Assembly: GCA_008632985.1 (NCBI GenBank)
Contig: QPGO01000081.1
Coordinates: 310,001-354,138, forward strand
Origin: Psammoneis japonica
Lineage: Eukaryota
Direction of reading: 5' to 3'
DNA: 44,138 nt
In this document: piece by piece, positions 2,547-44,138 of the stretch
Layout of the letters: each line of letters starts with the position of its first letter
Numbering within the stretch: position 1 is the first letter of the stretch
Notes under the pieces: model-generated
What the model was told of the DNA's origin: nothing
The model's input: only the letters and a program-made list of their open reading frames with translations
The model's database searches: none
Program-made: the position numbers and the translations under genes

Positions 2547-2699
2547 ATTTTTTAGACTATGTACTTTTAACGAATGAAATATATGCTGCTACTCAATGCG
2601 AAGTCAATATGATGCAATATCATCCTTGAGCAGTAATGGGTGGGTGGCGACGAAGTAAATATCAGGGAGCAAAGCAACAGGTGCAATAAAAGCACTCGC

Positions 2700-5304: not shown

Positions 5305-5972
5305 GATGACTTTTAGTTGTCGTGAACCGCTGTTGAGCTCCCCCATGCCACGAACAAGGTCGTCGTTTTGGAGTTTCGGCGTCTTGCAGAAATGTGAGCG
5401 AGGGGATTTTCCGACGGTTTGCCGGAGAATTTAGAATTCCTTTCGAATGAGTATGATCAATGTAGTATCTGCATGACATATGAAAATGAGTATATAAGTA
5501 TCTTTATATGTTGTAAAAATCGAAAATATAACGTCTTTATGTAAAAAAAAATTCAACTGCCTGTCGATAGCCCAACGGATACCACGCGCTTGAAGCAGCA
5601 GAGGGGAAGGACAGACGCCAAACGCAACCACCACGTACGTACGCACGCACGCACACAGCCAGCCTTGAACGGACCGAATGCCGAATGCCAATGGCATGCT
5701 TGTTGCAACTCGTCGACGCCCATCGAGGCCATAGTGTCATGCACATAGCACCGGTGCGTACAGTGCCAGCAGAGGTGGTCCCGCTGACAATCTGAAATTG
5801 GCATGGTCGAAACAGCACCTCTCACCACACCCACAGTGCTGGGGGGAGCAGGAGAGGAGAGTCAGCAACTGATGTTCTGCCGTTTTCCTTTTTTGTTGCA
5901 CAGAGACAAAAGAAGTCTCACAGGACAACTCAGGTGAGAGAAACTGAGCTGCTCAACTGAGCCAGTGTGCTG

Positions 5973-6313
5973 TGAACCCACATCTCTGGCAATCACATCA
6001 AACAGACATGTTTTTTTTTGGGGGGGGGGGGGGGGTCGAACAAGACACTGGGCTGGGACAAAAGCAACAAACCCAACACTGGTGATGAAAGAAAGTGAGT
6101 GGAGGATCTGGAGAGATCTGATGTTTTTTTGGGGGGGATCAAACAAGACACTGGGCTGGGACAAAAGCAACAAACCCAACACTGGTGATGAAAGAAAGTG
6201 AGTGGAGGATCTGGAGAGATCACATCTGGCCACTGTCTGCTGTCACATTGAGTTTGCGTGTGACTGGTGCAAGACACACCTGACTCTCTGTCGGACAGCT
6301 GTTGCACCTCCCC
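5973..6313 (-). repeat. Probable 3' LTR of the Copia remnant, preceded by a polypurine tract
   Basis: On the minus strand GGGGAGG (6313-6307) is followed by TG at 6306, downstream of the RNase H remnant, and ends in CA near 5973. No partner LTR was found. Confidence 0.45.
6008..6221 (+). repeat. Tandem direct duplication of about 100-110 bp
   Basis: ATG-T(n)-G(n)..AACAAGACACTGGGCTGGGACAAAAGCAACAAACCCAACACTGGTGATGAAAGAAAGTGAGTGGAGGATCTGGAGAGATC occurs twice (6008-6118 and 6121-6221). Confidence 0.95.
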
Positions 6314-8857
6314 ACAAAGAGCAACCCACCAGTTGCCGATCAAAGACAGAGCTCCCAAAAGAGAAAGAAAGTGAGGCAGACAGAACCCGAATGTCTGCAA
6401 AGCTTTCCAACAGCAGGTGCAAAGCTGAAACAGGTGTCAACCAACTGAGTCACAGGCAGGAGTGGCCTCTCGTCAGTCAGCAAGCATGACAAGCAAAGAG
6501 AGCCCAGCCAACAAGAACCTCTTTGTGAGCACATCTGCAGCCCCAGGGTCAATGACTCCAGCATGCCCAGCGACAATGTTCCTTGCCTTCCACCAGCCTT
6601 GGACAGCAAAGTGTTGAATGCCATTGCATGATCATGACTGCTTGGCAGCCACCTGGTGGCCGCTGACCATCTTGACAGTCAACAAGTTGTCAATGCAGAG
6701 AGGAGCACAGGCTCTTCAGCCAGTTGCCGGTGCAGTGCTTGCTTGGCTTGGCTCCCATGACACCAGCGAGGAACTCAGCCTTGGTGGGACTTGTTGCCAT
6801 GGTTGTTTGGGTCATGCAATGATGCACAACAGCAGTGCACCAGTGATGACAACATGTGCATGCTGGCAGTCAAGCAATGACATTGGTGTGAAGTCATTGG
6901 CATGTGCAGCATCATCAAATCCAACAAGTTGAAACAACTCCAAGAAGTGGGAGACAATGACAAACTGGGGTCATCATCAAGCCACTCAAAAAAGGAGTGA
7001 GGCAGCAGGGGTCTTGGATTGTGACAATTTTTTTTCAGGTCAAACCCCAGCTCTTGGCACAACAAAACACTTGGCAAAACATCACTGAGAGTTGCAGCAG
7101 ACATCAGCAGGAGCCTTGAAGAACTTGGAAAGGGCCACAAAATTGGGCGTTCATTGTGAAGATAAAATGGCGGGTGAGGGACAACCTGTGTGTGCTGATG
7201 CTGGTGCTTGTCTGCCATTTCTGCCTCATGTCTGTGTTCAGCAGGATCAAACAACTTTGGAGTGCAGTCAACTGCTGCAGTTGAAACAGCCTTGGAATCC
7301 ACAGTCATTTCCTTCCATGTTGATGCTCCCCTTCACCAGCAAGTTTGCAAGACTGGCTTGAGGATGCAGCTGTGTGTGAGAGTTGATCACAATGGAGTCA
7401 CAGCTCTGAACCACACACTCAAGAGCCATTGAATTCTACACATGGACCAGGATGTGCTTGAAAGGGGTGTTTCCTCATGTGGTGGGTGCCAAGAGATTTT
7501 CCAACAAAAGCCAAAAATCTCAACAGCAACATCCTCAGATGGATTGAGCAAGTGAGAGAAATCATCAACCCCTGCCAAAGCAGGAAAACCTCAGTGCCCT
7601 TGCAGGTGCTGGAACTGGAGCATTTGTCATGAGCAGCATTGCCAAAGAACAGCTTGGCATCAGAGAGCACCAAATTGACAAAATGTGTTTGTCCCACAGA
7701 GGAGCATGCTCACTTGTTCAAGACAGCTTTTTGGAGAGCAAGGAGCACAGCAGGGAGCAGTGCACACATCATCAAAGAAGATCAGTCTCCTTTCTGAGTC
7801 ACACTGTTTGTGCCATTCACAACAAACATGACACAAAGAGATGGGGGTGGAGAATCCAGAAGAACAAGAAGCACAGGCATCTCAAATGTTGCCCACACAC
7901 ATGATGGGCCATTTTGGCACTCAGTGCAAAAAGAACAGTCATTGCATTGGTTGATCCACACAAGATGAGCATGCAGGAGGCACCAATTTGCAGATTTGCC
8001 AGAATGACGGCCTTCTTGGATTCATCACCATGCACTGTCATCTTGACTGGCATTTGCCATTGTTTCCAAAATTGTTCTGCCAATGAGGTTGCATGACATG
8101 AGCACCACACCAGGAGGAGACTGTTTTGTTGAGGTGGCCCACCAACACACCCCACTCATTCCAAGTGCACAAAAATGACCAAGCATGTGTTGCATTCACC
8201 AGCTTCCCACTCAGGCAAAATTGCTGGATTTCACTGTCAAGCCAGACCAAAGCAACAAAAAGCTCCTTCCTTTTTAGACAACAGTGTGGGAGGAGGACAT
8301 TTTGTTAATGTTGCAATGTGCACCACTGATGTCAGCAGGGCCACACAACTGCAGATGTGATCATCGGCAACCAGGTGGTTGGGCCGTGACTGAATGCCAC
8401 ATGACCCATGCACTGAGAGACATGGATCACCAGCACATTCAAGCAAAGACATCAGCAAATGGGGGTCATGCTGCTCTGATGTGACATGCACAACACCCAG
8501 ATTGCAATGGTCCTCTCTGTGTGGTGTGGGTGCCAGGATGATGTCCAAACAGGAGAGTGCAAGTGTGTGGGCAATTGTGCCCATGCTTGCAACACATGAT
8601 TGGAAAATTCAATCAAACTTGAGGGTGTCATGAAGCACCCAAGATGCAAGCAATCAATTGTGATATGATCAAATTGCAGCCAATCAAAAGGCCATGGAAG
8701 CCAAGATTGGTCCACAGCATGTCAACTTGCTTGTGAACAAGAAGCCTGATGCTCAACAGTTGGTCTTGGTTGAGTCACAAACCCACAGCACATTGGGGAG
8801 CAGTCAGTGACAAACAATGCCCTGCTGCTCCTTTATCATTGGATGGGCACTAGAGAG

Positions 8858-9140
8858 AAAAGAAGTCACAGGACAACTCAGGAGCAAAATCTGGCTGCTC
8901 AAAACTGAGATTCGCTGACTGTGAATGGCGTCAAATCATTCTTTGCGCACACAAATCTAACTGATGATAAACTCCCCGCGCGGCGTCACCAGTCGGGCAT
9001 TGTTTTAGAACGTGCTCGACTTTGAGAGGCAATCCATTGCGTCAATTCTCTGGCCACAGAACCATGAGAAATCTCATGAACAAAAAAAATGTGGCTCTCT
9101 AGCTCGTTGCCATGACAACATGGAGTGCCCCTTCCTCCAC
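8858..9140. pseudogene. Degenerate remnant of the 3' end and flank of a leishmanolysin-like gene (paralogous to 21692-21990)
   Basis: Co-linear similarity: CAGGACAAC, CTGACTGTGAATGGCG, GCATTGTTTTAGA, CATGAACAAAAAA, GCCCCTTCCTCCACA. A shorter match to its left part lies at 5907-5976. Confidence 0.75.
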
Positions 9141-9526
9141 AACGTGGCGGTGAGATCACAGGCTCAGCCCATGGTGAGATTGGCGTTGACGCCAACGCTC
9201 CACAGCCAGGACCAGAAGTGAAGTGAATGCACACAATTCTCACAAAAAAGACAATGGAACCACACTGAAAACAATGAACAAACCAGCAAGGAACATTTCC
9301 AGCAGTGGATCGCACTGCATCAAATCAGTTCATCAAGGAGATTCAACATGACAGTTCGATCATGATGATTTGTGACAGTTGTTGTTTCCGCCATAAAGAT
9401 TGAACGCAGCTGAGTCTCAAGGTGCAGTCAATCGGCAGGCAACATCAAATTCACTCCATTTGCAGTGTGACACTCTTGCATGGCATGGGCATGCCCAACA
9501 CTTCGAACTGTGTGAACGCGAGACAA

Positions 9527-10236
9527 TCACCTCATGAGTTCATGATTCGTGGTCCCGATTTTGATTGGGTCTCCTCGATTCAGCGAATTAATGCAGAGCT
9601 CAAAAAGGCACCATGCGCTCTGAAAGTGCCTCTCGTTCGTCAAACAAAGACAAGGAGAGTCCGCATAAAGTGAGTCAACATTCTCCAAAGATTGAGTGGG
9701 CATTGCTTGGTCCAAGCAACGCCAATCATAGAACACGTGGGTGAAATCTGATTCATGCTTCTTGACGCATCGTTGAATGGCCTGAAGCTGAGTCAAATTA
9801 GGGTCCGGATTGTCGACTTCTTCCCATTTATGTGACACCATCAATGCTTTGTTAATGTCAACATCACCTCTTGAAACGCCTGCACTTTCAACCTGATTCC
9901 AAGCATTGACGTTTCTGCCGTTGCTGAGAATGTTGGATGCAGGAATCAACTTGAAGTCACAACTCAATTCGGCCGGTGTGAACTCCATTCGAAGAGATTC
10001 CTGAAGAAGATCAAGATCTTCTTCATGCTCTACTTCCGCTTCTTCTTCAAAAATGAAGCTCCGAGCTTGCTCAAACGAGGCCTCATTGATCCGACTGAAG
10101 CTCGAATTGCCTTGAGCAAATTCTCTGCGTGACCATTCAATGTGAGGCATTCATGGAGCAGGGCACCAACGGCTTCAAACCGGAGCCAGATCCTTCTTTG
10201 CATCATCTCACAGGGTGAAGCCAAGCACACAAAACA
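9527..10236 (-). pseudogene. 3' half of the interrupted HET/TIR-like gene: end of HET-like domain 1 plus complete HET-like domain 2
   Basis: CLASPCEMMQRRIWLRFE, then LMVSHKWEEVDNPDP..QLQAI..VFYDWRCLDQ..SLENVDSLY..FQSAWCLFE, matching the HET pattern SH.W / D..C..Q / WC..E. Frameshift near 10150. Confidence 0.7.
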
Positions 10237-13200
10237 AAACCCAATGTCTGTGTTTTAAGTGCTGCTGCGCTTCCACCCTGCAACTCTGGCAACAAGCTAA
10301 CCCACACTCCCAGTGCACAATGTGCGGCAGGAGTGTGTGACAATTGGCCATCATCGGCATTGCCGAAAGGCGATGCCGACCCGAAGCAGCTGGCAACAGA
10401 GCGCGTGCCTGCACGGCAAGCTGTTTGGCTTCCCGTAGACTAGACTTGAACATGGGCTTTGCCACAGCCAACCAATTTCGCATCCGATGGGCAGAATGGG
10501 TAAAATGCTCTTCAACTGAATCAAGGAGTTGGAGCTTGTCTCTTGCCAAGTGCTCATCCGCCCTGGAACATGTTTCTCAGACTTTGGCCTCCGTGTCACA
10601 GCGTTGAGCAGATCTCTTTGTTTCAGAATCGTGTCCATGCACAGCATCATTGTGCATGTCCCACAATTCCCACCACTGTGACCAGATGCAACTGCCAACA
10701 GTCGCCACCCAATCAAGACGTTTCTCCCTGTCAGACAAAGCATGATGCACACCTGCAGCTAGCAGGTGCGACCGCTGGGCCACATTCCACGAAGTGGAAA
10801 ACCTGCCACTAAAAACATGTCGCCATCCAATCCTTTCTTGGGACCGAAAAAGTTGCATGTGTGCTGCAATGAAAGTCCTCAATGTGTGGCAATTCCTCAC
10901 AAAACCACCCTTCTAGAGAACCCAGGAGCATGTCCCGCAAAGCCGGGGAGGCATTTATGTCATCGCATTTCTTTCGAAGACCTTGAAAAAATTTGCATCT
11001 CCATGCCTCATTGTGAGGGCAACGAAGGATGTGATCGCAGTCCTCCATCGGATGTTGACAATGGATGCAACAGTCGGGACGAGCAGGGTTGTGCCTGTGC
11101 ACAATTTTGTTTGTTGGAAGGAGATCTTGGACCAATTTGACGGTGCTCACCTTGCACCGGATGTTCCTTGACATTGGTTTCGAATGCACTTGCCAATCGA
11201 TCGACTGATGCACAACGTCGGACCACCCATGCTTCTCTTTCATGTGTTGTGTGAGAGCTGGACTGGATGCCTCATGCCGAAGGACAGTCTTGAAGTTTGA
11301 AGTCAAGGCACCCGCTGGAATGTCAAGCAATGCAGAGCAATTGGGCATGCGGGGCACAATGGAAGTGTCACCATCATGCTGGCCTTGGAATCCGGCAGCT
11401 AGCGTGTCTGCTTGAACGTTCAATTTAGCGGGGAGAGACAAGTGTTGATGCGGAATGGTGTCGTCTTGGTGCCCTTTCACCCAGGAAAGCATCACTGGTG
11501 TGCCCTGCATGCCTTCACTCTGTGCACCTTGCAACTGTTGCAAAGAAATAAAAATTTCGTGAATGACACCCCAATCAGGAGCCAGGGCATTGGAAATGTG
11601 GTGCCTCAGGCAAAAGTCCCATTCACGGTGAGTCTCGTCCGCATCGTCGGGGTGTGGGGGCAGTGCCTCGAAGTTCTGAACGTTGCAGACCAAGGAAGAG
11701 TTGTCCAGTGACACTCTGTCCCAAGTGGAAAGGTCCGATTGCAAAATGTCACAACACGAAGAAGGAACCGCACCACTGAAAGGTGGCCATGAGCCTCTGC
11801 ACGACACGGGAAGGACGAAATCCGAAGACTGGGCCTGCACAATCCACCAGAAAAACTCCACCGACAGACAACGTCCAGCCAAAGGTGCCATTGCACTGCA
11901 CCACCGAGCCATCACTGCCGACCATTGCACGAGAGTTGGCCAATGTTTCCGCTGGTTCAAACACTGACACGTGCAGCGTCAAGTCTTGAAACAGGGCCGA
12001 TTCCCATTTGGGTGAAGAACGGACCCAAGCAACAAATTCACCCGGGACAGGGAGACTCGGAGGAATGGACACTTTAGAGAATGATGATTGAAGACGCCAC
12101 TTTCCATCGTCGGTGGTGTCAACCAAAACGGGAGATGCCAAAGGCGACAGGTCCGGAACAGTCTCTGGGTGCCTCAAAGATTCCGCGCATCCATCTCGGA
12201 CGGGGCATGCATTGCATCCGATGTCAGACCGGATGTACAAAAACTGTTCGCTCGGTTCAAAGTGAGCCGGGAATTGCGTGCGCATGTCGGCAGCAGCAAC
12301 AATCCATTGTCCCAATGGATGTTTCAGCGAAGAAGTGTCATCCTTGCAAAACAATGCACATGCTCGACGCCACTGCTTCCAAGCTCTGGGAGACGGAGAT
12401 GGCTGTTCCACTGGGTTGTTCAATGAAAAACTGCTGAGGAGGGAGCGATCACCTGCCAATTTAAATTCATCAATGGATGGACCGTCTGGAAGAGCAATGT
12501 CAGAAACCGTGAGCACGTTGAGATGCAATCGACAGCAATTAATCCAGCGGATCTCTTTGTCGGAGAATTCGCCAGACTCAAGTGCAACATCCATGATGCG
12601 CTGATCGTTGTCCCGCTGAAGGGGCAACACACCCACATCGTCCAAGTCGAGAGAGGCATTAATCCGAACCAGAAAAGATCGCAGAGACATGAACCATTTA
12701 GATTCAGAGTGGGGCAGTTTGGAGTGAACATCCACTAAAAAGCTGATGCCAGTGCCCAATTGAAACTGCACCCAAGCCACCATAACACGTGATAAAACAT
12801 GAGGTTGACCCCCGCCGCACCAGTGCCGAATAAACTGCGTGCATTGGGACATGCCTTGCTCCACATCTAACGACCGGAAACCGCCTCCACCAAGAGCACA
12901 CGGACCAAACAGCACGTCTCGTTTTGTGTTTTGGTTGTGCCCACACTTCGCAAAAATTGTCCGCATCGCTTTCCGCTGAACCTCGAACAACCCTTTGGCA
13001 AGAAGTGAGTGTTCGGGAGATTGTGAGACACAGACGACAAGTGGCAGGCGAAGCAATGCGTCCAAGCTTCATGCCTGTCAAGAGGACACGCTCCAAGGAA
13101 CAAGGCAATGTCATCACTCTTCCTCTTTAACACCAAGTGTTGCGTTTTCTGAGTGCCAGCGGGAGACTTGCAATGCCCTAAGGTCTTGTGAGATGAGCAA

Positions 13201-16200
13201 GCTGAAAGCTGGGTGCTGGACCTCTTGGCAGTGCAGTCGGCGGAGAAAATTTCAATGTCAATTTCATCGTTAAAGGGGTGCAAGCAAGGTTCACCGTCCT
13301 CCGTGAAAATCCATTCGACAGCATGAAATGAGCATTTGGGAAGCTCAAGTTCGTGGCCAGCAGCATTGAGAAGGTCACACCACATTTGGTTGTCTTCCTG
13401 CATTTTTGGAACCAGGTCCATGGCGGACGGCTGAGGGGAGGCACAAAAGTCATTGACTTGCTTCGAGGTGTCATCCACGCATCCTCTGATGAACAGTTTG
13501 AGGGACTGTTGTCGGTTGGGAGATTCGAAACAGGTGCCGTGAGCTTTCTCGTCGAACAGCCAGAACAGACTGTTGCACATTTGATTCCAGTGGAGTGGGG
13601 AATTGCCACTGCCCTGTCCCGTGCCACAGATCAGGAACTCAGAAGAGTGAGAGCATGAGGTCGCAGACAGGCCAAGAACCGTCTTTGGCCAATGCCGGGT
13701 GCCCTCCAAGGCAGCGTTAGCGGACTGTGTGATCTGCTTGGGCATGCCGTCACTTCTGCTCTCCAGTGCCGTTAAAGCAGGGACATTTCTGTCATGACAA
13801 GACGTGCAGTCATCATCACTGTGGATGGCAGTCTTCCTCGACACTCTGCCAATTTCCAGCATTAATTCCTCGAGGTAAACGGGAGTGTTGGCGTTCAAGA
13901 ATGGTCTTGTGCCATAAATGCCTGGATTGCACAAACGCTGATGCTCCATGTTCTGAGCAAGGGACCGCCATTTCACACTGGAAACAAGCTGAAAATCGGC
14001 CTCATGCATGTGGATGACGTGAAGTCGGTGAATTTTGGTGTTGCCAGGTTCCTTGAAGATCATGACGTTAACGATGTCTTTCCAACGATCATGCGAGCAC
14101 CCCCAGCGTAGGGCGTAATTGAGCAAGTTCAAACGGATTTGAATCAAGGTGCGTTGGACTTTGTCCAATGAAGCACATTCTGGAGCAGGTTCACCATCAG
14201 CAGTTTGGGAATGAGAGTGAGCATGGGAAGCATGCATTGCTTTCCAATGACCCAGATGAAGGCCTGAGAAAAGCGATGTCGATGTGGACTCTTTCCACGG
14301 CTCAATCTTGCCTTCCAAATCCTGAGCCGTTAAAACTGTGACACAGACACTGGAGAACGGCGTTGCAAATGAGTGACAAACCGAGACGCAGCTTCATTGA
14401 GCACAGACGTGTCATGCTCTCTGTCCAGAATAAGATCCGCCACAACAGTGTCCCCTGAATGACCAAGTCCACAGACAGAGGGGGAACAGTGGGAGGCGTC
14501 CCATCAGCTTGCCCAAAATGTTTCTGATTCCGTGTGTGCAGTGCCGAAGCTGCTTCATCCGGAGCATCAACAGCAATCCAATCCACACATTCCTTTGGAG
14601 GGATCGCCGGATTCAGCAGAACTTGAACACCATTGATCCCAGTGTCACGTTTAGCTCTCACGACTTGATCTTCCGGAACAGTTTGGTGGTCTCTGCTGCC
14701 TTGCGAAGGTTGCGTAGAACAGCTGCCTTTTTACGAGAAGCTGCAGTGCCCTCCATTTCTGGCCGAGCAATCTTGTTGGCAATTTCATTGTCTCGATGCT
14801 TAACGCTCTCAGCCGCGACCTGTTGACACTCGTTCTGCACTTGTCGTAAAGCTTGTTGGCACTCTTCAATGGCAGATGGGATCACAAATTTGCCACTCAG
14901 GCTGGCGCGGACATTTTGAATCTGAGCCGTGTGATCAATGCGGGCACGCATCACAGACAACACACGAGACAAGAGATGCACTCGACAACGTAAATCCGCC
15001 AACTGAGTCGACCACTCCGGTTCTCGGTGAAGGCGACACTTCTTTGCCACTGCAAGAAAACTGCAACAGATCCCTATCCAGCCTTTCTGCCAATTCATGA
15101 TCAGGAGTGATGGACTCCATGAGTGAAGTGGACCTCTCCAAAACGTTCCGACTCTCTAGCATGGGATCGATGGTTTGTAGGTGGGTGGCAACTTGAGGTT
15201 TCGAAGACGCTTGTAGGTCTGAAAGGCCGCCTTCGGAAGATCAACGGTCGGGTTGCCGAACAAAGTGACAGTGTCAAAGTCCACGAAGCAAGCGCGATGA
15301 TCCGAAGTGATGCGGCATCCAAATGCTTCACAGCCACCAAATCGTGCAGTGGCCAAAGCACCAGGGGTAGCTAAAACGAAATCCAAGCATTTTGACCCCC
15401 TTGTGCAAGCAGAAAATGCCCGTGTCTCCTGTGAGAAGAGAACATCAACATCGGAGAGATTGAACCGTTTGGGGCCAAAGTGGACAGAGAGTCCGGGTGT
15501 CAATGACGAAGTCCCGTGTTAAAGTCCCCCGGAACAAAATTAACCTCACCGGTGATGAAGGGAGTTTGTCACTGTGGAACGGCAAACCAACAAAACTGAA
15601 TGTTGGGCAGTGTCCAAACAAACCTCCGATGCACCCACAATGTCAGCCTGCATCTCGTTTGTGATCTGCCAGTGCGCAGCGAAGTCTCCTCCACGTTTGT
15701 CAAACTTGCTGCCATTTGCATTGAAAGCGTGCAGTCTGATGTGATGTGACAGCTTGGGCCCCACAGAGTCACCAACGGAAACGTTTGTCTTCAGGTGTGA
15801 GAAATCAATGTGTCGTCCGGCAGAGGATTGAAACCACCTGCCATCCAAGAGTGTCTGCCATGTGGAAGACATGTCTGTTGAAATGGCACTGCTCATGGTT
15901 GGGCCACACTCCTCCAAAGAGAAGACTGGGGCTTGCAGCGCTGCCAGCAGGTTGAACCGAAGAATGAGGGCATGGAGAAGATTGGGGCTTGTTGCGATGC
16001 AACGGGTGTGAGGCAGCATGAAAGGAGAACTTGCGACATCGAGATGTGCGTCGAAAAACGTGTGCCAAAGTGTGGGACTCTTGAAGTCGTGAGGCAATGT
16101 CAGGAGGACACCCAATCTTTTGAGGGGGTGGAGGCAGCGAAGTCCAACCCCGCTCTAAAAATCCTTCTCCTTGTCTCGATGGTCGCCAGGCCTGTCTGGT

Positions 16201-31900: not shown

Positions 31901-31989
31901 GTCAGTGAGGTAACCAGCGTGTTTGATCGCATGACTGATTGCTCATGTGAGGGGAGGTGCAGCGATTTTGTCATTGTCCATTTAGAGGA

Positions 31990-34594: not shown

Positions 34595-37500
34595 CCCTTG
34601 AGTCCAGTCGGGCGGCTGATTGCACGTGCGCGAGCTCCCACACAGGTCAAAATTACAGTAGAAAAGTTTGTGTATTTCTACTTACACATTTCCATGTAAA
34701 TTCGTACCGCAAGTGAATCGTCATCCAGACCCTGTCCACAACACGCCACAAAAAATCCGCCACTTCATTTTTCTTCCAGATTCTCGCCATGACATCCGAT
34801 CGTTTCCGCAGCTTTGTCTGCTACAATTCATCCGACTTTTGTTACCATGTCTCCCTTCTAGCATCCACCAAGACTTTTGGTGCATGTTTTTGTTGTTATT
34901 TCATTGTTTTTGTTGGGATGCTATGAACTTATCGACAAGAGAAAGGGGTTGCGTTGTTGGAATCTGTTTTCCCGTGATTTGGTAGTATGCTTGGAGAAAA
35001 TGTTTTGGCGAATTCCAAATGACAGTTGGAGTGCAATACGGGATCGCGCGATTTTTGAATCCACGCATTTGAATTTCGAGGCATTTATATTCTCGCATTT
35101 GAATTTTGTACTGTGTCATTATCACAAGTGCTAGAGACAATGTCTCGACAACCGCTTGGAAGCTGCAATACAAGGACCGACGGCATTGGGTTTGCGAGTG
35201 TGCCGAATGCCGACCCTAAGAACCGCAACACCAAGGACACTAGTGCTCATGATGACAAAGAAAATGTGACGCCCAGGTCCAGGAAACGTGATAAACCATG
35301 CCCTGATTATGTTGATCCACCTCCGCCGCCATCGCCCCCTCGACCGCCTTCTTTTGTTATCGACTTCGACGATCTGGATTTGCGTCATCCTTTGCTACCA
35401 GGAGATGTGACAAGCCTCAGTTCAGAAAATGATAATGATTGTGACTCACAAGATAGTGATGACAATGAAATGGAGTACGAAGATGGCGACAACTACATTG
35501 GAGTAGCCGAGAACAAAGACACAGGCTACGTTGAGATCATGCGGGCGACGGGATCCAGAAAAAGAACCGACGATTGCCCGGATGAGACTGATGATATTAT
35601 TGACAATGCTTTGTCTCACACGCTGAATTACTTGAATCTCTCGTCTGATAATCCGCAACACAACGGAGACGTGCGTTTTGACTCTTATGATGAATATGAT
35701 CTTGGCTTTGACGCCGACGACGAATCCATTGACCAGAGTGGAAGCAGCAATCGCATTGATGAAGGGCACGGATCTATGAGCACGTCCACCCCTGCGGACA
35801 AGTCTCTCACTGCCTACGGTGGTGCGGAAAATACGGATGATGATGGAGGCGGCAACATGAACAAGAGCGACGCCAAAAAGAAGCAGAAGAAGAAAGCCGA
35901 GCCATGGGTTGAACCGGAGGTTTTGGAAGGTGGCAAGGCTGTATATTTTTCGTATGACATTGAACTCACTGGATCTGTGAGGAATTTTGATCGCATTGTT
36001 GAGATTGGCGCAGTTGCATTTGACGAGTCGGGAAAGATCCTCAGTAAATTCGACGAGCGCGTGAATCCGGAAGGAGTCGGCATCACAGAGAAGGCGTATG
36101 AGGTGCATAAGATATCAAACAAAGATCTCACTCAATGTGACACCTTTGATGTTGTTGGGCGAAGGTATAATCAAACAATGAAATGCAAGCCGATAAAGAG
36201 TGGTGTCAAAGAATTTTTGATTGTTGACGAAACCCATTATACTCATCGATGGTTCACGTTTCTTGGGAAAGACTCGTCCAGAAAGGGCGGCTTTGTTTTT
36301 GAGTTGATACACGACTACTTGGTGCCTACAACCTGGGACAACACAGGAAAGGTAATTTACATGGACAACTACTTCGTAAGCCCTCCTCTCTTTCGAGCCT
36401 TGCGAGAGCGAGGAATATTCTCTGTTGGACCAAGCTCGGCAACACGACCTGAGAAACTTGAAAATTGCACCAGCGACAGCATTCCTTTCCAACAGTACAA
36501 GAAGTCTGATGCTCGGTTGGTTGGTGGAAAAGGATTCATGCGGCACGCGGTACAAAAGCTCAAGACGGGAGTTCTGCACGCTACCACTTGGCTTGACAAC
36601 CGATTCCTTGTGATCTTGTCGACTGTGCACATTGTTGCTACAAAAGCTGAAGACACGGTTCTCAGATGGACAAGTACAGCCCGTGCGCGTCTTCCGATTC
36701 GAGCTCCGATGGCATTAATTCGATACGCAAAGAACATGGGATTTGTCGATAGGGTGGACAAGGCCAATGCGCTGGCAAACATAAGAATTCGTCGCTGCAT
36801 GCGACGCTACCACCGGCAGATTTTCTGGTGGCTTGTTTCCACCGTTGGTTTACTTAACAGCAAGGTTATTTGGGAAAGCTTGCTTGGGGAAGAGACAGTT
36901 GCTGAGCTCAGAAAGAAGAATCAGCGGTTTGGATATTTTCATTGGGTGCAAATATCTCTTGCGCATGGCTTGATCAGAGAAGGACTTCGGGAGGCAAAGG
37001 AGGAGTGCTTGTCAGCAGCTGGTCCAGAGGCACAATCAACTCCGTCACCGCACTTCATGCCAGCTCGTAAGCGGTTGTGTCGTGAAAGCCCGCCGGTCTC
37101 AATGTCGCCTGTGACTCACGTCCTTGTTCCTGTCAAGGACATCAAGCGTCCCGACGAGAAAAATGGCGCACTCCCAAGAAGCTACTGTGTGGTGTGCAGG
37201 GTGCAGGCTGAGCACACAGGAAAAGGACTGTACAAAATGCCCAACGGATCGGCTTGTCCAAAGCCATCTGTCGGGTGCTCCAAGTGCAAAGTTTGCCTCT
37301 GCCACAGCTGCTTTAACGATTATGACCACGAGAACAACCAGGTCAGATCCAAAGCTGTAGTGATCTTCTAACCGTTGTAACATTCTATTTTCGTGAAAAT
37401 GCTGAGTACAGTAGCGCTTTCACCGCCGCAGCACTTGTACTATAGCGCTTCAAGCAGCTCTCTACTCTCTACTCTACAGTAGCTCTCTACTAGCTATTAG

Positions 37501-37668
37501 CTTTGCCGGTAGAGAGTACGGTAGAGAAAATTTCTTGGCGTCATCATTTCTTTTTCGGCAGGCCGGAGCTCGCATGGCTGGATGTCCAACCAGTAGAATC
37601 TACATAGGTGTTGTACCAGGGACAACCCGGATGTGTGTCCAACATCTGTCCAACGCTGGACTCAAGGG
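34595..37668 (+). mobile_element. Young piggyBac-like DNA transposon with 13-bp TIRs, probably an internal-deletion derivative
   Basis: CCCTTGAGTCCAG (34595-34607) and CTGGACTCAAGGG (37656-37668) are perfect inverted repeats; subterminal TGTCCAAC repeats; normal TA and CG content; single long ORF. Confidence 0.9.
35140..37371 (+). CDS. piggyBac-family transposase with an acidic N-terminus and a partial DEDDh/DnaQ-like exonuclease domain
   Basis: YDIELTG..DRIVEIGAV..VNPE..ITEKAYEVHKIS (ExoI region); KPIKSGVK, YMDNYF, WLDNR, YAKNMGFVDRVD (piggyBac core); C-terminal CVVC..CSKCKVCLCHSCF Cys-rich domain. First ATG at 35140. Confidence 0.88.
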   Translation: MSRQPLGSCNTRTDGIGFASVPNADPKNRNTKDTSAHDDKENVTPRSRKRDKPCPDYVDPPPPPSPPRPPSFVIDFDDLDLRHPLLPGDVTSLSSENDNDCDSQDSDDNEMEYEDGDNYIGVAENKDTGYVEIMRATGSRKRTDDCPDETDDIIDNALSHTLNYLNLSSDNPQHNGDVRFDSYDEYDLGFDADDESIDQSGSSNRIDEGHGSMSTSTPADKSLTAYGGAENTDDDGGGNMNKSDAKKKQKKKAEPWVEPEVLEGGKAVYFSYDIELTGSVRNFDRIVEIGAVAFDESGKILSKFDERVNPEGVGITEKAYEVHKISNKDLTQCDTFDVVGRRYNQTMKCKPIKSGVKEFLIVDETHYTHRWFTFLGKDSSRKGGFVFELIHDYLVPTTWDNTGKVIYMDNYFVSPPLFRALRERGIFSVGPSSATRPEKLENCTSDSIPFQQYKKSDARLVGGKGFMRHAVQKLKTGVLHATTWLDNRFLVILSTVHIVATKAEDTVLRWTSTARARLPIRAPMALIRYAKNMGFVDRVDKANALANIRIRRCMRRYHRQIFWWLVSTVGLLNSKVIWESLLGEETVAELRKKNQRFGYFHWVQISLAHGLIREGLREAKEECLSAAGPEAQSTPSPHFMPARKRLCRESPPVSMSPVTHVLVPVKDIKRPDEKNGALPRSYCVVCRVQAEHTGKGLYKMPNGSACPKPSVGCSKCKVCLCHSCFNDYDHENNQVRSKAVVIF

Positions 37669-37718
37669 TACTGTAGAGGTTGGTTTGCGACATGAGATGA
37701 TTGATGCCCTGGGAGGTG

Positions 37719-37878
37719 GACATTATTTAAGCCCTACTGTATGTCTAGAGGATGATATGACTCATTGCCCCCAAAAATGCAAAATATCTGCAAGACATTA
37801 TTTAAAGGGACCCTGTGTCCTAGAGGATGACTCATCCCTCATTGCATTGCCCCCCAAAATGCAAAATGTCCGCACGAC
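37719..37878 (+). repeat. Two imperfect direct repeats of about 75-85 bp
   Basis: GACATTATTTAA..CTAGAGGATGA..CATTGCCCCC..AAAATGCAAAAT(A/G)TC(T/C)GCA(A/C)GAC occurs twice. Confidence 0.85.
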
Positions 37879-38155
37879 TTGTCTGCACGAACGAACACGC
37901 ACGGTGTTGTCACACCCACGGCACGACAAATCCCTTCTTTTCCGCACACCGTACAGACTAAAACACAGGAAAAGCAACATCCGCAATGCTTTCACAGAGT
38001 GGTCAAACAAGGTTGGTTGTTTTGCTCTGTTGTGTCACACTTTCGACCAAACACTCCAATTGGCAACACTCTGATGATGCAGTCATCAAAAAGTCCTGGG
38101 CACCACTGCACTTCCTTGCGATGGAAATCAGGGCACCAGTGGAATCCTGGCATCT

Positions 38156-38448
38156 GACGCGTTCCAGACGTAGGTGGGAATCCGTGTGACATTGGGCCCG
38201 TAGACTTCTACGTGCGAGCTCCGTAGTAAAATTATACGGTAATTAAAATGTCAATGATCGCCAACAGAAAATGAGGCAATTTTGCGAACGCACAAACTCG
38301 CACATGATTGAAGTACATCATTTTTTACTTAGCCAGTTACATTCTTCAGACATTGAAGAATGTAACTGGCGCATTATTGTTTCTATAAATTTGTTATATA
38401 AAACGTCTGGGGCTTCGCAAAACAGCGAGTCTGGACAATTTTTTTTAA
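38156..38448 (-). mobile_element. Partial MITE copy, inverted relative to 40122-40517, truncated at the N at 38449
   Basis: Near-identical reverse complement of about 40225-40517; starts with GACGCGTTCCAGACGTAGGTGGGA. Confidence 0.88.
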
Positions 38449-39691
38449 NAATCACTGTGCTCCTCCCCACCTCTGCATTGTTTTTTCTGCCATTTGTTTT
38501 GATGCATGCTGGCTCGCTGCCACTTCGCTTTTCTTTTCTGTTGTTTGCTGTGATGTGTGTGTGCTGATGGCATTTCCAAAACATGCCGTTGAGATGGAAC
38601 ATCGTCATTGTTTTTCTTTCACACTGTTGATGAATCACAACAAGAAAGAAAGTGATGCTGGCTTTCACAATTGGCGGCGAGCAGTTCTTCCACACAAATC
38701 GTGGCATGTGCATCTCACAGCCAAGCAAAGAGCAGACAACACACCAGGCCTGCAGCTCATGGGCCCCTCTTTCACACAGTGGGCTGATGGACAGTCCAAA
38801 AAGTGTCCACATGTGGGATCTGGGCAATTTGCTGGCACACCAGAAGAGTCATTGAGAGAAAACCAGGCCTGTGGGGAGCACTGGCCACTTGTCTTTCTGT
38901 GTGGGTGTGTGCCATGCATGCTGCATCACCTGTGCGCAAGTGGGGCCCTGCTGATGGGGCTGGCACTGCAGTGGCAGCACTGGTCATGCAGGTGACCATT
39001 TTGTTTGATGGCTCATGCCATTTTTGGGGCTGTGGCAAGGTGCGCGGACACTCTTTTTCCCCAGTTTGTTGCCAAAACAGTGCATCACACAAACCCACTC
39101 ATTGTTTGACATGTTTTTCCAATGCAACCTTTTTGTGCACAATCCATGACAAATTCTCTTCATGCAAAGCTGAGCACATCATTTGTCAACATGCCACACT
39201 GGCAGTCCTGATTTTGCAGCACTTTCAAACCCTTCTGAAAAACAGCTCCATGCACCCATTGCAGGGAATTCATCAATTTTTTAGATGTCCCCAAGACCAC
39301 CTCCAATGTCCTCAATGATCATTCTCTGAATCCGGGTGATTCATCTGCGCCAAACAACACATGCTGTTCCAAAATCCAAGGGACGCACTCTCAAATTCAG
39401 ACCGACTGCCCGACCCCCTGACCCCCCCAACCAATGGACACAAAAAAGTCTGCAATCACCAACTGTCGGGTGGTCAACAAAAACAAGAGCTCACACAATT
39501 TGGTTTTTTGCTTGTGCAAATCACACAGCAGGGGTGCGCAAAAGGACAAATGCGCGCGAGGCAAAACATGTGACATCAATTGATTTCACAACATCAAAAC
39601 AAAGAATCTGCATGAAAAAGTGCCAAAGAAAGCATTTGGGGAGCTTTTTATGAAAGAAAAAGGGGGGTGAGCTGAGTGCAAGGACATCACA

Positions 39692-39908
39692 ACCTTGAGT
39701 CCAGTCGAAGCCCAGATGAGCCCTCAAAATTGCTCAATCTGTCAGCACCGTGCATTTCCTGCAATTTGTGTTCACAATTCAATGTGTTTTTGTTCCCCAA
39801 ACCTTGCACTTGGGTGTCCAAAATCACTCTCCTGCACAGTTCACAGCACAAATCATGCAAGAGAAAACCTGGACATGGACACTTTTTGGACACTCCTGGA
39901 CACAAGGG
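39692..39908. mobile_element. Short non-autonomous element related to the piggyBac-like transposon
   Basis: Left end CCTTGAGTCCAGTCG is identical to 34596-34610; right end CTGGACACAAGGG differs by one base from 37656-37668; subterminal TGGACA repeats; CA on both flanks. Confidence 0.7.
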
Positions 39909-39995
39909 CAAGCCAAGTGTGCAAGACTCCAAGGCCAAGACAACTCCTCTGCAGAGAGAGAGAGAGAGAGACAAAAAAAGAATTTTTACATTGTT

Positions 39996-41172
39996 GTGAA
40001 GATATCATGGCAAAAATGACAGGGCTGGTGCCCCATGTCATGGCAAAAATGGCACTTGTCCTTTCAGCAGCACTTTGTGTCATCTTCAAGTTTCTTTTTT
40101 CTTGGGGCTCAAACAACAGCAGACGCGTTCCAGCCCTAGGTGGGAGCTCGTAGTACTGACGTGTGACAACAATAATTTTTATCATCCGTCGTATGTTTCG
40201 TACGTAGATTTCTACGTGTGATATTTAAAAAAAATTGTCCAGACTCGCTGTTTTGCGAAGCCCCAGACGTTTTATATAACAAATTTATAGAAACAATAAT
40301 GCGCCAGTTACATTCTTCAATGTCTGAAGAATGTAACTGGCTAAGTAAAAAATGATGTACTTCAATCATGTGCGAGTTTGTGCGTTCGCAAAATTGCCTC
40401 ATTTTCTGTTGGCGATCATTGACATTTTAATTACCGCATAATTTTACTACGGAGCTCGCACGTAGAAGTTTACGGGCCCAATGTCACACGGATTCCCACC
40501 TACGTCTGGAACGCGTCAGCAACAGCACACCAAAGAAAACATCATCATGAGTCACATGGAAGGCATTGAGCAATCTGTTTGTTTTGAACTGTGTGCCAAC
40601 CAGGTGCCAGCTGCTGCAGCATGTGCTCACAGTTGGATGCAACAAAGGCCACCCCAAAATTGCCCACATTGCACCATGTTGCATTGTGGAGAACGACTCA
40701 AGAATTGCGGGGCTGCTCCTCTTTGCCAGGTGTGTGGGATGGTGCTGGGAGATGGGGTGAGTGCAAAAATGCAATGGTCTTGTGTGCCACAAGAGACATG
40801 AGGAGCATCATCTTCTCTCATTTTGTAAAATTGAGCAACTCTTTCATCCTGCACAGGACCACTGTGTGCCTTGATTCAAGGACAACTTGGCTCCAAAAAC
40901 AATGACAAAACGTCCACCCGAACAAGACCCTCCCAAAATTCAGCATGGCATGGTTGCATGGGTGGGTGGAAAGGGTGGTCCACATGTTTTTGTTGCCTTG
41001 GTGGATCATCCCGAATGGCACCACTCACATCGGTGTTTGGAAGATTGTTGTCAGTGATTTGCAACCATTGGAAGATCTCTTGGTGACACACGACTTGGTC
41101 ACGATGAGACCGAAACAGCCACAGATTGCATCGAATTTCGAAACACCAATCCACTTTACATTGGAACAGTGA
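39996..41172 (+). pseudogene. Cyclophilin-like pseudogene, copy B; hypermutated and MITE-interrupted
   Basis: Aligns to 24241-25030 with frameshifts, many TA and CG transitions, and stop TAG changed to CAG (41167-41169). Confidence 0.9.
40122..40517 (+). mobile_element. Complete 396-bp MITE with ~24-bp imperfect TIRs, inserted in cyclophilin copy B
   Basis: Ends GACGCGTTCCAGCCCTAGGTGGGA and TCCCACCTACGTCTGGAACGCGTC; flanking AGCA duplication (40118-40121, 40518-40521); absent from paralog A; internal 17-bp-stem palindrome at 40303-40341. Confidence 0.9.
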
Positions 41173-41695
41173 GTGGCTCAAATGCCACATTTGGTGCAAA
41201 ACTGCAAAAGTTTTGCTCTGGCTCAGCTCCAGCAGTTGCAGAGTGCAGGCACAGAAACTCGGCTGTGTGACAAAATTGAAGACTAAAGCAGCTAGAGAGC
41301 TTCCATTTTTTTCAAAATGCGTTTGAAGAGTCATTCCTCTCAGCTCTTGATGAAGGATGAACAGCTTCAAAATTGATTGAAAGCAATGTAAAAAGCAAGA
41401 GAGTTGCACGATTCGTAGCAACCTTTTCCTACTCTAGAGTAGAGGAAAAGATTGCAGAGCCGCAAAAGCAGGAAGATGATGCAGAATCAACATGGAACAG
41501 ACGTAGATGTAGTAAGGGCAGACGAGCACGACTTAACAAGAAATGATACAATATGGCGAAAGAAAGGAATGTCCGGTAACCACGAACTCTCATTTGATCA
41601 CCGTAATGGTCGTCTAATACTATCTTTACTTTGAGGTTTAACCCCATCGTGGATGAGTTGTTCGAATTACGCTCGCAAGTAAGCAATCCGCTAAA

Positions 41696-43459
41696 TCAAG
41701 GTGGGAGATCAAAGACGTTGACTCCTTCCGGTATGTCCAAGGCAGTGTTCAGTCGAATCACATCGCTGAATTTCAAATCGAACATGTTGATGACATCACG
41801 ACATTTCAGCCTCCTGAAATCGCCATCATTCAAGCAAAAGAAGCAGTCGCCATCGCGGAGACGGGTGAACTGGTCGCGCAGCACTGTGCCGACAAGCTCG
41901 CCGACAGCCGCTCCGTCGACATGCATTTCAGCCAGTCCTCCCACCCAAGCGTTAATGTCTTCCACCGATTTGTACAAAGCGGCTAGCTCCTGCTGGGCCG
42001 CAATCGAATCAGTGACATCCGAGAAATCTGTTGCTCTGAGTTAGTCCATAGGCCTCGCGGATATCGTTATAGCCGGGAAGCCCATGATCACGACCACGCT
42101 GAATATTGAGTGAGGCAAGGTCGAGACCACCAGCTCCCGGGTGGCCAAAGAGAAAGTTTCGCACAGCGTCCACAACAAACATGTCAATTTCCTGCGACAC
42201 CTGCTGCCAGAATCCACCAATCAGATAATCCACATTTTCTGGGTTCTCGGTCAAGAAGGTGGCATTGAAAAAGGCGTCTCGTAAACCAATCGACCCCTTT
42301 CGATTGTCCCGTCTGACAGCATCAAGTTGGGCGTCAGCATGGTGTGACCCACGCGAAACGCTCCCGTCGAAAACTCAGTGGCAATGCCAGGGTCAACATT
42401 TCTGTCAAATCCTCGGTAGCGAGAGGGTGCCATGGGCCCAAGTAGCTTGGGAAGGAATTCATTGAACGTGATTACTTGCATCTCTGCACCGACAATCTTG
42501 CGAGCCAATTGGTATATATGGTCGTCGCTTTCCGTTGGATACATTTGCGCAATCTTATCGGCAAGGCGGTTGTGTTCTCGAACAAAGAGAGTATGAAGAG
42601 CGGAAAGACCGACCTGTTCGTTTGCTCGAATATCTCCGGCAAGAAAGAAATCGGTGCGGTCACTTCCTCCCTCGTTCTCGAGGCCATCAAGATTAAAAGG
42701 GAGAAGCTCATATCCGTTAATCAGACTCGTCTTGAGTTTACCACCTTGAAATGTGCGCAATGCGAGTGCACGAGACTCGTCAGATCCGTAAACGTTGGAA
42801 GCATCAATACATGCTGTAATTTCATTCACTTGCTGGCGAACGCCATGGGTAATTGAGTGGTCAAGCATGTTGGAAGCATTCGTAGCTGCTGAAGCTTTGT
42901 CAACTTGTAGGCTGCGCAATCCATCAGCCGAGCGTTCAAATTTGGATCGAGTAAAGGGGATAACTCCCGGGAAAAAGGGATCAGTAGCATCGCTTACATC
43001 AATGGGCGCAAGCCCACTCTCGGAGCTGGCAGGAGTAAAACTAATGTCATGGTCAAGAAACTGCCCCCAGGCAAAAACAAAACTGGTAATGCCATGAGAA
43101 TTTGGAATGCTGCTTGTCTGAGCAGCGCAAGTATTGCTAATGTTTCGAGCATTAGGAGCGTCGGGAGGGAGCTTCATCACCTCGCCAATTCCGTCGGGAT
43201 AATCTGCAAACGACTTTCGTAAAAGCATTACGTGAGCGGCACCTCGACCATGATTCTCCGTTTTGCCGTCGATGCTTCTTATTGCAGTTAAAGGAAATGA
43301 TCGGCAAGGTCGATTGGGTGTGCGACTGGCGCTTCCTCCGCTCCGTCGCGATCCTTTTTTAAGAGCCCTGACAGAATTGTGAGGGGCTGGAAGAACTCTT
43401 CCATCTTGGAGCATCAATAAAATCACAACCACTAGCGACTGTGCCCAAGTTAGAGTCAT
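41696..43459 (-). CDS. Secreted animal-type heme peroxidase (peroxidase-cyclooxygenase superfamily), copy B; two apparent 1-nt frameshifts near 42295 and 42040
   Basis: Signal peptide; WGQFLDHD, AGDIRANEQ..LHTLFVREHNRLA, AFRVGHT, DLASLNIQRGRDHGLPGY, DQFTRLRDGD. The ORF is split into three pieces, so it may be an incipient pseudogene or carry assembly errors. Confidence 0.85.
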
Positions 43460-44138
43460 CTTGCGTGAAATACTCGTATCTTGATGAAATGCCTTTGAAA
43501 AAAAAAATTCAAACTAGAAAATGAACAAAATCGAACAAACAGCGAAACACATCCATCACTCTTTGCTTCCTAACCCGAACCTTTCCCCCTCCCTGTTCAT
43601 GAGGTGTCCATTCAAATTTTCGAATTACGAACTCAAAAAATGTTACCATAAGCAAAGTTTAACGGTCATCCCTTGCGTTTGTAATGTCATGTATCCATGT
43701 TTATAAATAATCATTGTCTTAAATGTTAATTGATGACTAAGAAGCCGAATGTATGAATGTACATTGCATGCCCAAACCCAAATTTTCAAAATTTCGCGGT
43801 CCATCCATGCCTTGCAGCTCCTTGCAGCACTGCCTCAGGCCTCAGCTCAGGTGCTTCAAGAGCTCCTCCTTGCCTCCAACAGGCAAAGGCCTCACAGAGT
43901 CACAAGGAGCAACAGTTCGAGGGGAGGGGAAGGATGAGAGCACTGCCTGCAGTGGTCTGAGTGGGGGGGAGCAGCTTCTGCAGAGGGCCTGACAAGCTTG
44001 CCTCTTTCAAGCTGCACGCTGGGTGCCAGGCAAGAGAAGGGGCACAAGCTGTGCTCTTTTTTGACAAATGCTTGTGCACCTGGTGGCAAAAGCTGAAGCT
44101 GGGGGGGAGCACTGCAATGATGGCAGCATGACAAAGGT

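Follow-up and report, generated by a model that had tools for sequence, protein, structure and literature searches.

Hypermutation confined to the dinucleotide TpA has been reported in the chlorarachniophyte alga Bigelowiella natans, in a 2026 bioRxiv preprint by Mettrop et al. (10.64898/2026.01.13.699255). In the passages of that preprint available to us, 231 of the 302 nuclear mutations found in mutation-accumulation lines lie in regions of integrated giant-virus and virophage DNA; 230 of these 231 are A>G or T>C changes, and all 230 fall at TpA. The rate is about 6e-7 per site per generation, approximately 1000 times background, and the process is episodic, being seen in some lines only (10.64898/2026.01.13.699255). 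Here we analyze a single 44.1-kb stretch of Psammoneis japonica DNA (44,138 nucleotides; contig QPGO01000081.1, positions 310,001 to 354,138), hereafter the window, in which transposon-rich blocks are nearly free of TA and rich in TG and CA. A preliminary description of the window had proposed a repeat-targeted conversion of TpA into TpG and CpA, of which it knew no published account; the B. natans preprint is such an account.

The B. natans genome carries, in approximately 95 Mb, 124 clusters that are depleted in TpA and enriched in CpA and TpG, with a rho value of 0.45 in the nucleocytoplasmic large DNA virus (NCLDV) region, and a homologue of ADAT2 has been proposed as the candidate enzyme (10.64898/2026.01.13.699255). 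The available text of the preprint has no occurrence of CpG and is silent on heterochromatin, on flanking context and on other species. For the diatom Phaeodactylum, the accessible part of a mutation-accumulation study describes the familiar GC>AT bias, with no effect at TpA (PMC6604790). A full-text literature search for the TpA signature, in diatoms or elsewhere, returned the B. natans preprint only.

Results

TA is nearly absent from discrete blocks

Expected dinucleotide counts were calculated from base composition, and the observed-to-expected (o/e) ratios for the whole window were 0.28 for TA, 0.64 for CG and 1.47 for both TG and CA. A two-state segmentation on TA counts, which was used to set block limits, delineated six TA-poor blocks (27,438 bp, 62% of the window) that together hold 152 TA against approximately 1,767 expected, as compared to 655 against approximately 1,152 in the normal segments (16,700 bp). 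The per-block o/e values are 0.00–0.09 for TA and 1.5–1.9 for TG and CA. Three of the blocks are repeat blocks, at 1–1100 (6 TA versus 75 expected, o/e 0.08; CG 0.17, TG 1.64, CA 1.66), 5801–21600 (93 versus 995, o/e 0.09) and 38401–40100 (5 versus 120, o/e 0.04; CG 0.27), the first and last of these being CpG-poor as well. The others are found at 26101–33900 (45 versus 516, o/e 0.09), at 40501–41200 (3 versus 47, o/e 0.06), which is a cyclophilin pseudogene within copy B of the segmental duplication described below, and at 43801–44138, a TA-free, CpG-poor block (0 versus 15; CG 0.07) that continues beyond the end of the window. Four gene islands, at 1101–5800, 21601–26100, 33901–38400 and 41201–43800, show TA o/e values of 0.63, 0.59, 0.50 and 0.50 and CG o/e values of 0.95, 0.96, 0.93 and 1.00, respectively.

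Sliding 1-kb windows gave the same picture, with TA o/e values of 0.00–0.20 in the blocks versus 0.5–0.9 in the islands and block values of 1.5–2.1 for TG and CA; TA o/e fell below 0.25 in 103 of 173 such windows. Both the depletion of TA with gain of TG and CA over runs of 1-kb windows and the discrete, sharp-edged blocks beside normal islands are features of the B. natans type. GC content is 0.46–0.58 in the blocks versus 0.47–0.50 in the islands. The blocks contain a long interspersed nuclear element (LINE) and repeats present at approximately 5 to 40 copies or more. The contrast between nearly TA-free, TG/CA-rich transposon blocks and normal gene islands drawn in the preliminary description is thus borne out, as is the limitation of the process to repeat-rich blocks. 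Its block limits are correct to within approximately 150 bp, except that 40101–40500, which it had placed inside a block at 38450–41250, is TA-normal and corresponds to a miniature inverted-repeat transposable element (MITE).

A segmental duplication gives the direction of change

Self-BLAST revealed a duplication of 24375–26609 (copy A, plus strand) at 40517–42826 (copy B), with 79.2% identity over 2,358 columns and a synonymous divergence (pS) of approximately 0.16–0.17. A further match, between 24242–24372 and 39997–40124 (75%), indicates that a 400-bp insertion splits copy B, whose start at 39997–40124 forms the right end of the TA-poor block at 38401–40100. The duplicated segment carries a cyclophilin gene on the plus strand and, on the minus strand, an animal-haem-peroxidase gene of which the 3' two-thirds are included; the two copies have undergone reciprocal loss. 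Copy A retains the cyclophilin gene (approximately 24167–25105, plus strand; Pfam Pro_isomerase) together with the 3' remnant of a truncated peroxidase copy (25629–26084, minus strand; Pfam An_peroxidase), and is hypermutated at its right end only (26050–26609). Copy B retains the intact peroxidase gene, with exons within approximately 41432–43513 on the minus strand (An_peroxidase, E = 3.7e-82). Both lost parts lie inside TA-poor blocks.

The intact copy was taken as a proxy for the ancestor. Its partner lies in a TA-poor block at 36 TA sites (19 + 17), of which 16 are now TG, 11 are CA and three are kept. By segment, 14 of 19 TA and 31 of 42 CG of copy A have become TG or CA in 40501–41200 of copy B, and 13 of 17 TA and 31 of 37 CG of copy B have done so in 26050–26609 of copy A. 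The changes that had been quoted from this pair were found in place, including CA at 26320, 26322 and 26324 of copy A and a TAG stop at 25028 that reads CAG in copy B. With 27 of the 36 sites converted, the direction from TpA to TpG and CpA that had been proposed holds, and the deficit is mutational rather than a compositional quirk. At TpA, a strand-symmetrised fraction of 0.39 of the sites (28/72) has undergone A>G, as compared to 19/204 after A, 16/187 after C and 9/174 after G. The rate at TpA is 4–7 times that at the other NpA, a difference whose absence would, by the preliminary description's own test, have spoken against its proposal. Transversions at TpA amount to 7/72, and this predominance of A:T>G:C is again of the B. 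natans type. No TA was converted into CG in the pair, as expected if a single hit destroys the target.

Both strands are affected, as seen in the 16 TG versus 11 CA products. Between the two hypermutated ends, a 950-bp core is normal in both copies, which share 20 of 36 TA and 37 of 48 CG. The limit between affected and normal sequence falls near 26050, inside the peroxidase pseudogene, and near 41200, where it separates the dead cyclophilin gene from the live peroxidase gene. In this pair TA loss and CpG decay have common boundaries.

CpG decay accompanies TA loss but is separable from it

In the affected segments of the duplication, 62 of 79 CG sites (42 + 37) are now TG or CA and seven are kept; C>T occurred at 62 of 156 CpG, versus 8–9 per 119–187 sites (0.05–0.07) in other contexts. 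Along the window, CG o/e is 0.07–0.35 in 1–1100, 5801–8900, 18901–21700, 26001–27600, 38701–40100, 40601–41400 and the last block. All CpG-poor segments are TA-poor; the converse is false. Indeed, the flanks of the large TA-poor block (5801–8900 and 18901–21700) have a CG o/e of 0.09, whereas its center (8901–18900) retains a CG o/e of 0.67 while TA stands at 0.13. TA loss co-occurs with CpG decay, yet is additional to it and separable, and the loss is not confined to CpG as deamination of 5-methylcytosine (5mC) alone would have it.

Within the TA-free, CpG-free part of the large block, 6028–6221 is a tandem duplication of a 91-bp unit with 98% identity; it postdates most of the decay.

A decayed LINE-like element and its relatives

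A near full-length, decayed LINE-like non-LTR (long terminal repeat) retrotransposon occupies 10388–15863 on the minus strand; in tblastn, residues 13–1920 of a 1,934-amino-acid relative (P0247) align to 15803–10409. A phmmer search of a representative library with a 508-residue open reading frame (ORF) at 12870–14393 (minus strand) yielded 2,816 relatives. The closest of these measure approximately 1,560–2,100 residues, and among six scanned with Pfam, three carry Exo_endo_phos (APE endonuclease) and one a weak RVT_1 match; judged on these relatives, the element has the single long ORF with APE endonuclease and reverse transcriptase of a LINE. The window copy itself gave no Pfam match at E values up to 10 except for zf-RVT (E = 0.011), which was also the only match at this threshold among 12 ORFs of the repeat blocks, and Pfam on 101 stop-to-stop ORFs of these blocks gave nothing beyond noise. 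DNA without TA leaves TGA as the only stop, so that long ORFs in every frame are meaningless here. Decayed copies without a Pfam match, such as this LINE, are missed by transposon annotation.

Of the aligned tyrosines of its two closest relatives, the window copy retains 3 of 45 and 4 of 49; the main replacements are His (12 and 13) and Cys (7 and 11). Tryptophan, in contrast, persists at 31 of 33 and 35 of 38 positions. Tyr is common to at least 8 of 11 relatives in 12 columns, and at these the window copy carries Tyr twice, His five times, Cys four times and Phe once. Tyr>His results from a hit on the antisense strand and Tyr>Cys from a hit on the sense strand, and the two strands have thus been used about equally, in agreement with the paralog pair and with the both-strand action suggested earlier. 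The protein motifs that had been offered as signs of direction fare unevenly: IHMHEADF stands against IHIYEADY in the relatives (I>M, Y>H) and the H of INCCRLHL faces a Tyr, but the C of GCVDD faces Phe and not Tyr.

The related elements are not equally TA-poor, which had been named as a check on the proposal. All 80 metagenome loci have TA o/e values of 0.39–0.85, and across their 1-kb windows (1,710 in all) the ratio never drops below 0.25 (versus 103 of 173 here), in a set that, being fetched through conserved peptides, is biased toward intact copies. On this comparison, TA poverty is not innate to the LINE family. In five of the related loci (L069 and L071–L074), CG o/e is 0.40–0.56 and TG/CA 1.2–1.5 with TA o/e at 0.52–0.59, from which it follows that CpG decay alone does not cause TA loss. 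Decay of the methylation type without TA loss is found in other hosts of this family. Together with the TA-depleted center of the large block, these loci uphold the earlier claim that the process is distinct from CpG decay.

Flanking context of TA loss

TA sites were classed by their flanking bases as RTAY, YTAR or mixed (R, purine; Y, pyrimidine). RTAY is the most fully removed and YTAR survives best. Among 146 surviving TA in the TA-poor blocks, 6 are RTAY, 66 mixed and 74 YTAR, as compared to 169, 340 and 117 among 626 TA of the islands (chi-square P of approximately 1e-17). The 22,111 TA of the 80 related loci comprise 7,317 RTAY, 11,325 mixed and 3,469 YTAR, and the RTAY/YTAR contrast between the LINE and these loci gave the same result (P of approximately 9e-15). 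Survival relative to the expectation from base composition rises from 0.014 for RTAY through 0.075 for mixed to 0.167 for YTAR sites. ATAC and GTAT are absent among 152 survivors (0/152) versus 67/626 in the islands. This palindrome-like preference points to recognition of double-stranded DNA.

The affected domains are not defined by copy number

Word depth has a baseline of approximately 50. At 26101–27334, the 5' fragment of An_peroxidase and adjoining unique DNA have a depth of 58–104, which corresponds to single or low copy, and yet are TA-poor. The neighboring 27335–32003 is a repeat of approximately 40 copies (depth of approximately 2,000), and depths of 285–469 and 1,600 were found at 32004–34004 and 38674–39340, respectively. 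An ESM Atlas search with the ORF at 28971–30212, within the 40-copy repeat, gave no usable match, and self-BLAST of the large blocks detected no LTRs or long terminal repeats. At the edge of the adjoining island, the short stretch 34005–34671 is of high copy number (depth of approximately 6,500) and nearly normal in TA and CpG; this could be another small element of young age.

The insertion in copy B is a MITE of approximately 400 bp (40119–40520, minus strand) with 27-nt terminal inverted repeats (40119–40145 and 40494–40520) that are 89% complementary. Its word depth of 30,000–49,500 translates into approximately 600–1000 genomic copies. It is unmutated inside a TA-poor block (TA o/e 0.83, CG 1.37), and the simplest reading is that it was inserted recently. 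A partial inverted copy lies at 38154–38448, where the 302-nt arms are 99% alike; one of the few differences between the two copies is a TA facing a TG. The partial copy stops at an N at position 38449, and this join may be an assembly seam.

Transposon ancestry is likewise not sufficient. An intact, single-exon ORF of 770 residues (35059–37368, plus strand) combines an RNase_T exonuclease domain with a piggyBac-type transposase domain (Pfam DDE_Tnp_1_7), an arrangement shared by its relatives P0121 and P0123. It is single copy (depth 57–60) with normal TA, and could be a domesticated transposase. The presence of an intact transposase-domain ORF in a normal island indicates that transposon ancestry alone is not the trigger.

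Selection on genes also falls short as an explanation. Inside an island, the intergenic stretch 25030–25628 has a TA o/e of 0.64, and the peroxidase remnant keeps its TA although its dN/dS against the intact copy (0.65 over 146 codons) suggests relaxed constraint; taken together, these two segments indicate that selection alone fails to explain the islands.

Between repeat copies, differences are dominated by transitions (A>G 82, T>C 84, C>T 72 and G>A 73, against 5–15 for each transversion). Among 40 variant places listed, out of 397 in all, 30 oppose CG or TA to TG or CA, as expected if copies decay independently after insertion. If the term 'repeat-targeted' of the preliminary description is taken to mean the sensing of duplicates, it does not hold, since single-copy flanks are hit, and both the 950-bp duplicated core and a MITE of 600–1000 copies are spared. 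Targeting looks like that of a chromatin or silencing domain that spreads 0.6–1.2 kb beyond high-copy DNA.

Sequence accuracy and other features of the window

The sequence was checked against contigs of a public DNA run (31-letter words, depth of approximately 50). These contigs carry the TA-poor sequence, over 26022–27218 with two other letters and over 40517–41547 with eight, which supplies the read support for the CA and TG bases that had been called for, from a run that may be the assembly's own sample. In run X2, recorded as 'DNA?', one contig joins 24612 to 24716 and omits approximately 103 nt (24613–24715) with intron-like GT..AG ends, which indicates that X2 probably contains cDNA. 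Its contigs lie mainly on gene islands and leave most TA-poor bins uncovered, which is no evidence of silence.

An ascorbate-peroxidase-like gene is found at 1341–2108 (plus strand; Pfam peroxidase, E = 1.2e-34). Its named relatives are all diatoms, at 69–81% identity (Fistulifera, Fragilaria, Thalassiosira, Cyclotella, Stephanodiscus, Mayamaea and a transcriptome entry with the truncated label 'Odontel'). For the haem peroxidase, Seminavis supplies the best named relative, and the nearest Atlas cluster is mostly Bacillariophyta; near-length protein searches gave no near-identical protein. B. natans was considered as a source of the window and dismissed on these grounds, namely the diatom relatives of the ascorbate peroxidase and the lack of an identical protein in the near-length searches. 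A long minus-strand ORF at 2966–3961, without a Pfam match, includes internal repeats of approximately 100 bp with 72–77% identity (3106–3701). Two more short paralogous pairs, 8778–9108 with 21620–21934 (74%) and 3957–4111 with 22485–22639 (80%), each join a repeat block or an island to another island. Rfam gave no matches over the whole window.

Discussion

Two mutation processes in transposon-rich domains

We consider it probable that transposon-rich, apparently silenced domains in this genome have undergone two separate, context-specific mutation processes in place, whatever the underlying chemistry. The first would be ordinary decay of CpG to TpG and CpA, as expected from 5mC deamination in methylated transposons. 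The second would consist of TpA-specific A:T>G:C transitions that turn TpA into TpG or CpA on both strands equally, until TA is nearly gone, and would match in kind the episodic hypermutation, confined to TpA, of the B. natans lines. Targeting would be by domain rather than by sequence homology, covering old transposons of several families and spreading 0.6–1.2 kb into adjoining unique DNA, host-gene fragments included, and leaving the recently inserted high-copy MITE unmarked; within TpA, RTAY sites would be removed most fully and YTAR sites would survive best. The window itself shows the pattern and its direction, its context specificity, its action on both strands, its confinement to regions and the fact that it does not depend on an RNA intermediate; a link of the domains to silent or methylated chromatin is suggested by their CpG decay.

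Several points weigh against this account. In the paralog comparison the ancestor is a stand-in sister copy and not a true outgroup. In the normal core TpA is still the top A>G class (17/133 versus 0.018–0.066 for the others), and some TpA mutability may therefore be genome-wide. The context of surviving TA may partly reflect the birth of new TA and not the loss of old ones. The direct conversions are too few to weigh one flank against the other: the hit strand has a pyrimidine at +1 in 22 of 27 cases versus 48 of 72 available, and a purine at -2 in 18 of 27 versus 48 of 72. The youth of the MITE is an assumption, its two copies being 99% alike. The silenced state of the domains is read from CpG decay and repeat content alone, and the run that agrees with the assembly may come from the sample behind it.

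Chemistry of the conversion and competing explanations

We know of no natural enzyme established for the conversion of A:T to G:C in chromosomal DNA. TpA being self-complementary, the sequence does not separate a hit on A from a hit on T. As the simplest chemistry and the likeliest single one, though at less than even odds, we tentatively favor an enzyme that deaminates the adenine of TpA to hypoxanthine while the DNA is double-stranded or briefly opened, an idea also raised in the preliminary description. Next in likelihood comes some other chemistry outside those discussed here, then thymine oxidation, and last error-prone repair synthesis.

5-Formyluracil mispairs with G, and the 5-hydroxymethyluracil (5hmU) of dinoflagellates favors TpA. 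A TET/JBP-type dioxygenase, or a similar enzyme, could oxidize the thymine of TpA in silenced DNA to 5-hydroxymethyl- or 5-formyluracil, with T>C as the outcome, and all the data are as compatible with T>C before A as with A>G after T. Paired with A, 5hmU is not known as a strong mutagen, which counts against such a route. In dinoflagellates, the accessible part of one study describes enzymatic 5hmU that is enriched on transposons and aids silencing (PMC11572971). The literature examined gave no evidence of modified thymine for either diatoms or B. natans, and we hold thymine oxidation to be unlikely.

Polymerase eta prefers the WA motif, and mismatches or lesions, for example T:G pairs from 5mC deamination, could recruit an eta-like polymerase that miscopies T at WA during patch repair. 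The common boundaries of TA and CpG loss in the paralog pair and the TA poverty of all CpG-poor segments are in line with such a coupling. However, A>G after A is not above A>G after C (see the rates given above), so that the motif is TA and not WA, and TA is nearly gone where CG o/e is still 0.67. In addition, the hypermutable regions of B. natans, in the preprint passages available, show no gain of C>T, as A>G or T>C accounts for 210 of the 211 mutations of the NCLDV region and for all 20 of the virophage region (10.64898/2026.01.13.699255). Error-prone patch repair is thus quite doubtful.

A bias from TpA to TpG and CpA could also act on the whole genome, with genes keeping their TA through purifying selection, and repeats and pseudogenes displaying the neutral outcome. 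The TA-poor parts of the duplication are indeed dead gene copies, no A context changes more often than TpA in the normal core either, and island TA o/e is just 0.50–0.63. What makes this improbable is that TA persists in the island intergenic stretch and in the peroxidase remnant, which shares 20 of 36 TA with its paralog despite its dN/dS; moreover, a sharp boundary near 26050 runs inside a pseudogene, and the MITE is TA-rich.

Transposon RNA could also have been edited by an ADAR-like enzyme and then reverse-transcribed into new retrotransposon copies; in favor of this stand the preference of ADARs for U before the edited A, as mentioned in the B. natans preprint (10.64898/2026.01.13.699255, available text), and the fact that one affected element is a LINE. 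Such a route is very improbable: the two strands of the LINE are hit equally (12–13 Tyr>His versus 7–11 Tyr>Cys), host-gene fragments and unique flanks that were never RNA intermediates are hit as well, repeat copies differ from one another at CG/TA versus TG/CA sites, and the B. natans mutations, according to the accessible text, arose in place in single-copy DNA. Equally remote is a sequencing or assembly artefact in which a modified base of heterochromatin is taken for G or C at TA sites, since, although the window resembles a long-read assembly that traverses high-copy repeats with a single N at 38449, contigs of approximately 50-fold word depth carry the TA-poor sequence (a base-calling error being ruled out only on the assumption that such depth requires accurate reads), a TA-rich MITE sits within a TA-poor domain, and Tyr>His and Tyr>Cys occur beside well-kept Trp.

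Significance

The window shows the same signature as B. natans, near saturation, in another algal group that is distantly related to it and dominant in ecological terms. It also offers handles on mechanism, in that TA loss coincides with CpG-decayed and probably methylated domains yet is separable from the decay, spreads into unique flanks and host genes rather than sensing homology, and shows the palindrome-like preference for RTAY. It is conceivable, though we advance it with reserve, that an old and dedicated genome-defence system common to diatoms and chlorarachniophytes reads silenced chromatin and edits TpA, preferably in RTAY, in resident double-stranded DNA. If so, a natural A:T-to-G:C base editor of DNA, either an adenine deaminase or a thymine oxidase, would act beside cytosine methylation; it would strip transposons and integrated viruses of their stop and Tyr codons and of TATA-type signals, and would reach a few nucleosomes into neighboring genes, causing hidden gene decay and GC-neutral turnover in algal genomes. 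If the pattern is confirmed genome-wide, the enzyme could be looked for by comparing diatoms with and without the signature, this genome providing a strong footprint for tracing it, and transposon annotation, dating and mutation models would need to be revisited in such genomes.

Comparison with known systems

Fungal repeat-induced point mutation (RIP), as described in the accessible part of the source consulted, is also a dinucleotide-specific transition hypermutation that wrecks transposons and can leak into unique neighbors, but it turns CpA into TpA and raises AT (PMC7296669). Here TA is destroyed and not created, the opposite direction to RIP, as had been noted from the start; there is no TpA made by C>T and no fall in GC. 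RIP, in addition, senses duplicates, whereas duplicates are not uniformly hit in the window, where the duplicated core and the MITE are spared and single-copy flanks are not. ADAR and APOBEC enzymes share with the present case a deaminase-type hypermutation directed against selfish nucleic acids; those systems mark one strand of RNA or of single-stranded intermediates, while both strands of resident DNA, non-mobile flanks included, are changed here. CpG decay by 5mC deamination is present here too and contributes part of the TG and CA excess, but it is unable to remove TA, which is nearly gone in the center of the large block where most of the expected CG remains. Dinoflagellate 5hmU, an enzymatic modification of A:T pairs on repeats in another lineage of the same supergroup, is an epigenetic mark, and the available text reports no TpA>CpA mutation footprint for it (PMC11572971).

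The B. natans hypermutation remains the closest match, with A:T>G:C transitions at TpA only, yielding TpG and CpA. The two cases differ in host, a chlorarachniophyte there and a diatom-like stramenopile here, and in the weight of the footprint, which is far heavier here (62% of the window at a TA o/e of at most 0.09, versus a rho of 0.45). Single-copy viral insertions are affected in B. natans, as opposed to high-copy transposons and their unique flanks in the window, and the mutations were caught de novo in the former, whereas they are known from standing sequence in the latter. The overlap with CpG decay and the preference for RTAY over YTAR are seen here, and neither is found in the preprint text available (10.64898/2026.01.13.699255). 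The kind of process is therefore already known, if only very recently, and the diatom case is not in print in the literature searched. The window extends the process to a second lineage and to ordinary transposons, on which its footprint is saturated; its overlap with CpG-decayed domains, the spreading into flanks and the RTAY preference are new as well.

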